Assembly (NCBI RefSeq): GCF_046105845.1
Contig: NZ_CP151004.1
From: Escherichia coli
GTDB taxonomy: Bacteria; Pseudomonadota; Gammaproteobacteria; Enterobacterales; Enterobacteriaceae
DNA: 64,000 nt
Reading direction: 5' to 3' (one strand)
Positions 2,833 through 3,997 of the stretch are shown here, piece after piece. The notes beneath the pieces are model-generated. The model was not told where the DNA came from. It saw only the letters and a program-made list of their open reading frames with translations, and made no database searches. Position numbers and translations under genes: made by a program. The first letter of the stretch is position 1; every line of letters begins with the position of its first letter.

Positions 2833-3093
2833 TTAAATTTTATCCGCGTGATGCATCAGCACAAATTTATCCCACAACTGTTCTTCCGTCTCGACATGTT
2901 GCGGATCCTTCACAATAGTATTGGGGATCGGGCACACCTTCTGGCAGGTTGGTGTCTCGTAGTGACCTACGCATTCGGTACACTTATCGCTGTTAATCTC
3001 ATAGATATGATCGCCCATTGAAATCGCCTCATTCGGGCATTCGGGTTCACACATATCACAATTGATGCATTTTTTAGTGATTAACAGCGCCAT
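2833..3093 (-). CDS. yfhL: Ferredoxin-like protein with two [4Fe-4S] cluster motifs
   Basis: [20 protein letters not shown] ... [18 protein letters not shown]: two cysteine cluster motifs; start taken at the internal ATG (86 aa) rather than the 94-aa ORF-track start. Confidence 0.88.
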
Positions 3094-3148
3094 AAGGAAA
3101 CTCTCAAAACAACACAAACCGGGCGGGCATTATACGCGCATTCTTTAC

Positions 3149-3997
3149 TCAGACCAGTTTTTTCACCAGCGCTTCACTATGACGAATACGTTCTGGTGCC
3201 AGTTCCAGATCCTGCTGAATCAGCGCAATGAACAGCAAATCCGTTAACATTCCCTGCGCGTGACAAGCAGAGATTGAAGCACTGTTTGTCGCTTGTTCTT
3301 CGGCAATGGTATACAGGCAATGAGAAGCGCGCTGTTGCAGGGCATTGGGAGTAAAGCCGGTAATCGCCAGCACTTTTCCGCCCACTCGCAGCATCTCATC
3401 TGCCGCCAGGTTTAACTCGCGTCGTACACCGGTGTAAGAAATGGCTAATAACAGATCGTCAGGGGACGACGCCTGTACTGTAGCGAGTAGCGCATGCATA
3501 TCGCGCACTGCGGCAGCATTGAAGCCAATCTTCATCAGCTTCCAGGCAAAGTTTTGAGCCACCAGACCCGAAGCGCCAATACCGGTCAGAATTATCCGCC
3601 GCGCAGAGCGCAACATTGCCACGCACTCATGCAGCTTCTCTTCACTATTAACGTTTAGCGTTGCGTACATGGCGGCAGTATTTTCTTTAATCAGTTTTTC
3701 GCCGACCAGCCGTAACGGATCATCACCGCGGATTTGGTTATGAATGGGCACGGAGGGAGATTCCGGCTGGCTTGCCAGCGCTTCACTCAACGCCAGCTTA
3801 AGCGCCGGAAAACCTTTATAGCCGAGTTTTTGCGCGAACTTCACGACGCTGGACTGACTGACTCCGGCTTCGTTGGCCAGTTGCTGAGAGCTTAAATGGC
3901 GCGCCGTATCAGGTTGTAGCAGCAGATAATCTGCCAGTTTTTTATCACTCTGGGCAAGCCCCTGGTAACGCTGACGGATACGAAGTAATCCGTTCAT
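3149..3997 (-). CDS. yfhH: RpiR/MurR-family transcriptional regulator (HTH plus SIS domain)
   Basis: Translation MNGLLRIRQRYQGLAQSDKKLADYLL... with an N-terminal HTH and a sugar-isomerase-like C-terminal part; start at the ATG at 3995-3997 (282 aa) rather than the extended ORF. Confidence 0.85.
   Translation of the reverse strand: MNGLLRIRQRYQGLAQSDKKLADYLLLQPDTARHLSSQQLANEAGVSQSSVVKFAQKLGYKGFPALKLALSEALASQPESPSVPIHNQIRGDDPLRLVGEKLIKENTAAMYATLNVNSEEKLHECVAMLRSARRIILTGIGASGLVAQNFAWKLMKIGFNAAAVRDMHALLATVQASSPDDLLLAISYTGVRRELNLAADEMLRVGGKVLAITGFTPNALQQRASHCLYTIAEEQATNSASISACHAQGMLTDLLFIALIQQDLELAPERIRHSEALVKKLV

Follow-up and report, generated by a model that had tools for sequence, protein, structure and literature searches.

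A ferredoxin gene, yfhL, and an orphaned MurR-like regulator gene, yfhH, as probably independent neighbours in Escherichia coli

Introduction

We examined yfhL and yfhH, two neighbouring genes of the Escherichia coli chromosome at positions 2833-3997 of the 64-kb stretch of DNA analysed here (hereafter the window), an interval bounded exactly by the stop codon of yfhL and the start codon of yfhH. A first reading of the letters without database searches (the sequence-only reading) had paired the two genes, had noted that no catabolic operon adjoins them, and had left unassigned both the effector and regulon of the YfhH regulator and the redox partner of the YfhL ferredoxin. We propose that the locus holds two independent adjacent units, the gene of a known ferredoxin and that of a MurR-like regulator whose operon was lost in Escherichia, and we put the probability of this interpretation as a whole at roughly 0.65.

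Results

The yfhL-yfhH locus

The main features, with coordinates in the window, are as follows.

2833-3093, minus strand: yfhL, 86 aa, ATG to TAA (3093 to 2833); from the open reading frame (ORF), NCBIfam NF033683 and PDB 2ZVS
3121-3157, minus strand: predicted yfhL promoter; from cross-species comparison
3149-3997, minus strand: yfhH, 282 aa, ATG to TGA (3997 to 3149); from the ORF, Pfam and PRK11557
4053-4067, minus strand: candidate operator box 2, yfhH-proximal, GGAATATAAAATTCA
4085-4099, minus strand: candidate operator box 1, yfhH-distal, adjoining the former start of the etherase gene, GGAATTTTTAATTCA
4108-4113, plus strand: ATGATG at the probable place of the former start codon of the etherase (murQ-like) gene, judged by positional correspondence with the murQ-like start in loci L003, L007 and L084; it opens a 45-codon remnant ORF (4108-4245)
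4118-4205, plus strand: fossil of the 3' end of a gene for a MurP-like enzyme IIBC (EIIBC) of the phosphotransferase system (PTS), now the upstream region of pgpC; from blastn and alignment
4206-4841, plus strand: pgpC (yfhB), phosphatidylglycerophosphatase C; NCBIfam TIGR01545, 447 bits against a cutoff of 259

The two genes are co-oriented on the minus strand, as the sequence-only reading had them, and the RefSeq annotation of K-12 agrees with their identities (yfhH is b2561 and yfhL is b2562); chance is no plausible source of either gene. They are separated by a gap of 55 bp, and a Shine-Dalgarno sequence, GAGGA, lies 6 nt 5' of the yfhH start codon. The remark that no catabolic operon adjoins yfhH was also correct for this genome, where its neighbours are the divergent pgpC-tadA and, on the opposite side, shoB/ohsC and acpS. 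Among 5,426 complete E. coli genomes, 5,425 match the 2.2 kb around the two genes (2100-4300), none at more than 97.9% identity, and 5,259 contain at least 80% of the locus. Identity to K-12 is about 98-99% here. The yfhH region itself aligns with that of K-12 MG1655 at a mean column identity of 99%, so the extra divergence of the longer stretch presumably lies in the shoB/ohsC spacer.

Linkage of the two genes

One genome per species was scanned with a three-sequence ferredoxin alignment, and the neighbours of the 80 ferredoxin loci retained, which range from Escherichia to the Betaproteobacteria and Aquificaceae, were typed by tblastn with the proteins of the window. At 12 of the 80 loci, all in the Enterobacterales, the 5 kb upstream of the ferredoxin gene contain a yfhH orthologue, which is absent from the other 68. 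It is directly adjacent (gap of at most 110 bp) at 10 of the 12, from Escherichia, Superficieibacter, Citrobacter, Enterobacter, Mangrovibacter, Rahnella and Yersinia, and stands 1.2-1.7 kb away in Acerihabitans and Klebsiella sp. BIGb0407. Within the Enterobacterales, yfhL occurs without yfhH at 7 of 19 loci, and tblastn found no yfhH near the ferredoxin gene in Photorhabdus, Xenorhabdus, Arsenophonus, Rosenbergiella or Enterobacter sp. Ag1. At an E of 1e-5 or better, no RpiR homologue of any kind was found around the ferredoxin gene in the 61 loci from outside the Enterobacterales; the co-oriented genes most often met upstream there are coaD (34 loci) and rsmD (25 loci). The genomic context of ferredoxin genes of this type, termed Alvin-type, has been reported to vary (PMC2984482), and the present loci are consistent with that. 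In Salmonella, genes for an ApbA-like reductase, a major facilitator superfamily (MFS) transporter and a LysR regulator stand between yfhH and yfhL.

Comparison across species brought out a putative promoter of yfhL within and just beyond the 55-bp spacer. Its -10 element, TATAAT at 3134-3129, begins 15 nt past the yfhH stop codon and is followed by a GC-rich discriminator, GCCCGCCC, at 3128-3121; the -35-like element, CTGGTC at 3157-3152, is weak and lies within the final yfhH codons. Such a promoter would place the transcription start near 3120 on the minus strand, some 27 nt ahead of the ATG. The block GCGTATAATGCCCGCCC upstream of yfhL is kept in 12 Enterobacterales genomes, from Escherichia to Yersinia and including Acerihabitans, and it is intact before the Salmonella yfhL, though yfhL is there preceded by the LysR regulator gene. 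A consensus scan whose threshold for the -35 element is 4 of 6 matching bases found no promoter in the yfhH-yfhL spacer; the predicted one escaped it because its -35 is weak.

It could be argued that yfhH and yfhL nonetheless form a true bicistronic operon, in which YfhH would set the ferredoxin supply according to a sugar phosphate, as the sequence-only reading implied. The shared strand and the 55-bp gap would fit such an operon, and no terminator-like hairpin was found in 3094-3148, so that read-through from yfhH into yfhL is possible. The adjacency of the two genes in 10 genomes, from Escherichia to Yersinia, points the same way, but it is lost in Salmonella, Klebsiella sp. BIGb0407 and Acerihabitans, and yfhL is found without yfhH in the Morganellaceae, in Rosenbergiella and at all 61 non-Enterobacterales loci. 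A single operon also sits poorly with a promoter in the spacer, whose consensus -10 is conserved and stays with yfhL despite the three-gene insertion of Salmonella; an exact-pattern scan of the window placed no YfhH-type box (described below) near yfhL, and elsewhere the ferredoxin gene has been reported to be monocistronic and constitutive-like (PMC2984482). We consider the bicistronic operon distinctly improbable, and functional coupling of ferredoxin and regulator was rejected on the synteny and promoter evidence. The comparison argues for yfhL being transcribed independently of yfhH, the two genes being neighbours and not a functional pair. The pairing made by the sequence-only reading is hence not borne out: that reading had itself named independent transcription as what would refute it, and this is what the predicted promoter favours, together with the broken synteny and the lack of a YfhH-type box near yfhL.

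Some details of these loci deserve mention in their own right. Just upstream of the yfhL -10 at the Salmonella locus with the three-gene insertion (L084, 6888-10065), the sequence AGCTGGCCCGAGCAG resembles the last yfhH codons, as if the 3' end of yfhH had been carried or duplicated along with the promoter. In Klebsiella sp. BIGb0407 (L010, 3581-4663) a heptosyltransferase-like gene separates yfhH from yfhL, and the promoter usual for yfhL has been replaced. The ferredoxin gene of the Enterobacterales is tail-to-tail with acpS, which encodes a phosphopantetheinyl transferase, and elsewhere it often lies just downstream of coaD, the phosphopantetheine adenylyltransferase gene (34 of 61 loci; L001-L018 vs L019-L080). 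Both acpS and coaD belong to the metabolism of coenzyme A (CoA) and 4'-phosphopantetheine, which may be coincidence.

The YfhL ferredoxin

The identity of YfhL and its two cysteine motifs, one canonical and one extended, had been read correctly, as the ORF, the cysteine positions and the Pfam (Fer4_7 and Fer4) and NCBIfam matches bear out. The canonical motif has C9, C12, C15 and C19, followed by P20 (CxxCxxCxxxCP), and the extended one is spaced C38-x2-C41-x8-C50-x3-C54-P55, with 6 extra residues compared with the canonical motif; 32 residues follow C54. The protein scores 136.7 bits against the NCBIfam model NF033683, 'YfhL family 4Fe-4S dicluster ferredoxin' (cutoff 86), is 58-63% identical to the ferredoxins of A. 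vinosum and P. aeruginosa, and matches PDB 2ZVS at 84 of 85 residues (E 2.7e-57), the sole difference being Q64, an alanine in 2ZVS.

The Alvin-type family is defined by an insertion of 6-8 residues between two of the cluster II cysteine ligands and by a C-terminal tail (PMC2984482); the bounds applied to the latter were an extension of about 20-43 residues past the last cysteine and a total length of at most 100 aa. With its canonical motif, its cluster II insertion, its C-terminal extension and its family-model score, YfhL is an Alvin-type 2[4Fe-4S] ferredoxin, one already characterised, and it adds nothing new to that family. Reduction potentials of -675 and -418 mV have been quoted for YfhL, electron transfer by the purified protein has been followed by electron paramagnetic resonance (EPR), and yfhL has been deleted in E. 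coli, which abolishes heterologous N2 fixation; the published partners are heterologous nitrogenase proteins (PMC12047441, PMC13245594). An Alvin-type ferredoxin gene is essential in P. aeruginosa (PMC2984482). A statement that hydrogenase maturation needs an E. coli 'FdxA' (PMC8144621) may concern a different ferredoxin and was given no weight. The spectroscopy that had been proposed for YfhL is overtaken by the published crystal structure (2ZVS), potentials and EPR, and its native redox partner in E. coli was rightly called unassigned.

An etherase operon divergent from yfhH in relatives

YfhH is an RpiR-family regulator of helix-turn-helix (HTH) and SIS domains, as had been read from the sequence: HTH_6 (PF01418) covers residues 1-77 at 104.9 bits and SIS (PF01380) residues 128-258 at 112 bits, and the NCBIfam model PRK11557 gives 570.7 bits against a cutoff of 355. 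The protein is about 36% identical to E. coli MurR and scores 171.1 bits against the MurR equivalog NF012026, below the cutoff of 408, which makes it a paralogue and not MurR itself.

The regulon and effector of YfhH need not be left unassigned, as the sequence-only reading left them, since in relatives yfhH is divergent from an operon for an etherase of MurNAc-6-P (the 6-phosphate of N-acetylmuramic acid), with or without a PTS gene, that has been deleted in Escherichia. The divergent etherase gene stands beside yfhH at 10 of 13 orthologous loci of other genera, and the PTS gene too at 6. In Citrobacter, Enterobacter, Rahnella and Salmonella, two genes divergent from yfhH lie between it and pgpC. 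The first encodes a protein of about 298 aa that passes the MurNAc-6-P etherase (MurQ) equivalog TIGR00274 (431 bits against 302); the second encodes a PTS EIIBC of about 455 aa for which MurP, the transporter of MurNAc, is the best-matching family, at 323 bits and below the cutoff of 516. In Enterobacter and Salmonella, pgpC begins 3 nt after the PTS gene on the same strand and tadA follows. Superficieibacter, Mangrovibacter, Acerihabitans and Yersinia have the etherase gene alone, without the PTS gene. Set against murR-murQ-murP of K-12, the linked etherase is 57% identical, the PTS protein 38% and YfhH 36%, and the yfhH-linked operon is by these comparisons a paralogous MurR-like system. 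An initial protein search reached only YfhH relatives at least 79% identical; a representative search with contig look-ups added a distant metagenomic homologue (42% identical), which is likewise followed by a MurQ-like gene.

MurR and YfhH systems occur together in some species, such as Citrobacter sedlakii and some Salmonella. The Salmonella MurR cluster has 29 members and the Salmonella YfhH cluster 1,785; the patchiness of MurR outside E. coli is consistent with, though no proof of, the YfhH-linked system being the ancestral enterobacterial one. The MurR loci of Salmonella, Klebsiella aerogenes and Serratia ficaria (L086, L087 and L088; about 1100-2800 in each) have two extra genes between murR and murQ, encoding a 361-aa protein without a Pfam match and a DUF2057 protein, both absent from E. 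coli K-12. In S. ficaria the MurR cluster lies beside a hicAB toxin-antitoxin pair, which suggests that it is mobile. At the locus of Enterobacter sp. Bisph1 (L005, 2722-3966) an MFS transporter gene takes the place of the etherase and PTS genes, and both boxes described below are kept.

Candidate operator boxes

Two boxes upstream of yfhH, GGAATTTTTAATTCA (4085-4099) and GGAATATAAAATTCA (4053-4067), are the only exact matches to GAAT-W5-ATTC in the 64-kb window. Such a pair, its members 32-33 bp apart, stands upstream of yfhH at 10 loci and was not found elsewhere in 71 other loci. In an alignment of 12 genomes with a mean column identity of 54%, the boxes (GAATA...ATTC) are essentially the only invariant columns besides the start codon. 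In Enterobacter and Salmonella the distal box is 10-15 nt from the ribosome-binding site (RBS) and start codon of the etherase gene, and good -10 elements for both divergent promoters are found in the relatives, TATAAT facing yfhH and TATTAT facing the etherase gene, either between the boxes or right beside them, a layout that would be the one expected of a repressor.

MurR-type boxes were derived from five MurR-linked intergenic regions, those of Salmonella, Klebsiella aerogenes, Serratia ficaria, Hafnia and K-12, which carry boxes of like design (GGAATCATATATTCC, GGAATYAATGATTCC and GGAATAAATTATTCC). The predicted recognition helices of YfhH (SQSSVVKFAQKLG) and MurR (SQSSIVKFAQKLG) are equal at 12 of 13 positions, whereas HexR and AlsR have quite dissimilar helices. 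We predict that the two GGAAT-N5-ATTC boxes are the YfhH operator.

The predicted ligand

The functionally critical contacts of MurR with MurNAc-6-P are S146, K159, H171, S190, S192 and K195, of which K159 reads the lactyl carboxylate (PMC9177960). The aligned residues of the YfhH orthologues read S, K, H, S, T/S and R; Lys159 is invariant among them, Arg stands in place of K195, and T175 and T281 of MurR are not conserved. HexR and AlsR align with Arg in place of K159 and with Thr in place of K195, and they have His at 191. S146, H171, S190 and S192 are common to the RpiR family as a whole (PMC9177960), which leaves K159 and a basic residue at 195 as the sole contacts that discriminate, and the evidence of the ligand residues is suggestive only, because four of the six contacts are family-wide phosphate binders. 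The predicted effector of YfhH is MurNAc-6-P, for which the link with the etherase gene is the stronger argument.

YfhH may of course be MurR-like and still answer to another phosphosugar, such as a 3-O-ether or amino sugar 6-phosphate or N-acetylglucosamine 6-phosphate (GlcNAc-6-P), which would then also be the PTS substrate. That the enzyme linked with yfhH passes the MurQ equivalog model speaks against this, as does the invariance in the YfhH orthologues of the lactyl-reading Lys159, an Arg in HexR and AlsR; the linkage of the etherase gene alone in several genomes fits the recycling of endogenous MurNAc-6-P. A different sugar would, however, account for the scores of YfhH and the EIIBC under the MurR and MurP equivalog cutoffs and for the changes at K195, T175 and T281, and the coexistence of MurR and YfhH systems in Citrobacter sedlakii and some Salmonella suggests that they are not redundant. 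We regard another effector as unlikely, if not negligible.

A deletion in Escherichia and its fossil

The yfhH-pgpC spacer of the window is 208 bp long and composite, its yfhH side being the candidate operator region. Beyond it, 4118-4167 matches by blastn the last codons of the PTS gene of Citrobacter (94%, E 1.6e-16), Enterobacter (93%) and Salmonella (90%), and the remnant peptide IVAGKVMIYLLGYVVA matches the intact PTS C-terminus (...TIVAGKVMFYLLGYLVAVIAGF...); the alignment of the fossil, interrupted by an internal deletion of 22 nt, reaches as far as the pgpC RBS. The yfhH-pgpC arrangement of E. albertii is the same, and the etherase-PTS pair is missing from every one of the 5,426 complete E. 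coli genomes, where the best matches are canonical murQ at 68%; the deletion therefore predates the split of E. coli and E. albertii. The boxes, the fossil and the yfhL promoter of K-12 are identical to those of the window.

The fossil has features of its own. Between E. coli and Citrobacter, 4120-4167 is 94% identical though the dS of the neighbouring genes is at least 0.9, far above neutral or synonymous conservation, and species without the PTS gene (L002 and L005) likewise retain the PTS 3'-end fossil upstream of pgpC. Within it, TGTTAGGCT at 4148-4156 forms an invariant extended -10-like sequence, TGnTAGGCT, which may be a promoter of pgpC-tadA inside the old coding sequence.

Between the window and E. 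albertii, the ratio of nonsynonymous to synonymous substitution rates (dN/dS) of yfhH is 0.017 at a dS of 0.66, beside 0.017 for mltF and 0.013 for tadA; between species that retain the operon it is 0.03-0.045. Both boxes are intact in both Escherichia species, while about 7 positions differ in the 16 bp that separate them. The gene is under strong purifying selection and therefore still does something: yfhH is maintained by selection as an orphan regulator.

This selection bears on the suspicion that yfhH in Escherichia is a functionless leftover on its way to becoming a pseudogene, which the disappearance of the divergent operon from all 5,426 complete E. coli genomes might invite. The core promoter elements between the boxes are indeed weakened in E. 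coli (TATAAT has become GGCAAT toward yfhH, and TATTAT has become TTGCCA toward pgpC), and the literature reports no phenotype and has yfhH serving as a neutral marker site (PMC2909356). A drifting gene would nevertheless hardly show a dN/dS as low as that of the essential tadA, nor would both boxes be expected to stay intact while the spacer between them diverged; the intact 282-aa YfhH belongs to a cluster of 2,818 member sequences, and the locus is as widely kept as noted above (5,259 of 5,426 genomes). We hold the leftover view to be very unlikely, and decay to a pseudogene was rejected on the dN/dS.

Surrounding features

The other features of the region are as follows.

Start of the window: era', incomplete
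297-1025, plus strand: recO
Ending at 1768, plus strand: pdxJ
1768-2148, plus strand: acpS
2169-2233, minus strand: ohsC small RNA; Rfam RF02495, 70.5 bits
2559-2639, plus strand: shoB, 26-aa toxin
After pgpC, plus strand: tadA
Minus strand: mltF
Plus strand: purL

The ohsC-shoB pair, a known type I toxin-antitoxin system, lies between acpS and yfhL; this stretch is absent from most other genera, where acpS directly adjoins yfhL. Rfam matches over ohsC to the Thr and His leaders and to microRNAs scored below the gathering cutoffs and were dismissed. The best promoter-like match of the region, TTTACA-18-TATATT (10 of 12 positions; 2772-2801, minus strand), lies just 3' of yfhL and points at the 3' end of shoB, which is encoded on the other strand, and an imperfect GC-rich inverted repeat at 2652-2695 could terminate shoB and possibly yfhL.

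Discussion

We suggest that yfhL, the gene of a housekeeping-type ferredoxin of very low potential, is transcribed mainly from its own sigma-70 promoter in the 55-bp spacer, and that yfhH, a paralogue of murR, is divergent from an etherase gene in most Enterobacteriaceae and in Yersiniaceae and Pectobacteriaceae, often with a MurP-like PTS gene and then pgpC-tadA after the etherase gene. There, YfhH would repress both divergent promoters through the two boxes, about 32 bp apart, and MurNAc-6-P would release it from them. In the Escherichia lineage, a deletion of about 2.2 kb would have taken out the etherase gene together with most of the PTS gene, leaving behind the regulator, both boxes and the 3'-end fossil of the PTS gene, now fused upstream of pgpC. 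The present roles of YfhH would most likely be autoregulation, cross-talk with MurR operators and/or control of transcription into pgpC-tadA, the genes of phospholipid synthesis and tRNA editing; we propose the cross-talk because of the near-identical recognition helix and operator type. What the sequences show is the identity of the genes, the synteny, the fossil, the conservation of the boxes and the selection on yfhH; DNA binding by YfhH, its ligand, the direction of its regulation and its current targets in E. coli are what we infer from them.

It is conceivable, if rather doubtful, that the orphan YfhH was retained as a second MurNAc-6-P-responsive regulator sharing the operator specificity of MurR, in which case YfhH and MurR would bind each other's boxes and a signal of cell-wall turnover would reach murQP, the relic promoter of pgpC-tadA and, by read-through, yfhL.

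Several observations weigh against the interpretation of two independent units with a lost operon. YfhH and the linked EIIBC fall below the MurR and MurP cutoffs, and the sugar could for that reason differ from MurNAc; four of the six ligand contacts belong to the whole family; the -10 elements between the boxes have been lost in E. coli; and some co-transcription of yfhH and yfhL is possible. The open-access literature that mentions yfhH treats it as an uncharacterised RpiR-family factor or as a marker site, and holds no binding site, phenotype or etherase link.

Were the proposal of a lost operon correct, one of the last uncharacterised transcription factors of E. coli would gain a predicted operator (4053-4099) and a predicted ligand (MurNAc-6-P), and its 'unknown regulon' would become readily testable. 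In Salmonella, Citrobacter, Enterobacter, Rahnella and Yersinia, YfhH can be assigned a cognate operon that encodes a second etherase of MurNAc-6-P and in some cases a PTS transporter too, which suggests that in most Enterobacteriaceae it is YfhH, and not MurR, that governs the peptidoglycan-recycling etherase. A deletion with a recognisable fossil would explain why YfhH has no visible target in E. coli, and it makes yfhH a clean case of a regulator that has been orphaned and yet is still selected.

These proteins and loci can be placed beside known systems. Among the Alvin-type ferredoxins, E. coli YfhL (2ZVS), Allochromatium vinosum Fdx (1BLU) and P. aeruginosa Fdx (2FGO), there is no structural difference from the YfhL of the window. 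HexR (YebK) and AlsR (RpiR) have the two-domain fold and the phosphate-binding Ser/Thr of YfhH, but they are only about 25% identical to MurR in the same alignment and control the zwf/edd and als/rpiB genes, not an etherase. MurR (YfeT; PDB 7EN5, 7EN6 and 7EN7, of which 7EN5 is the ligand-binding domain) shares with YfhH the HTH_6 and SIS domains, Lys159, His171 and a near-identical recognition helix, and MurR loci share with the loci of YfhH in relatives two boxes of GGAAT-N5-ATTC type and a divergent etherase gene followed by that of a PTS EIIBC. The two systems part in that the YfhH-linked operon runs into pgpC-tadA and the MurR-linked one into yfeW, and in that YfhH is evenly conserved across the Enterobacteriaceae, whereas MurR proper is patchy.

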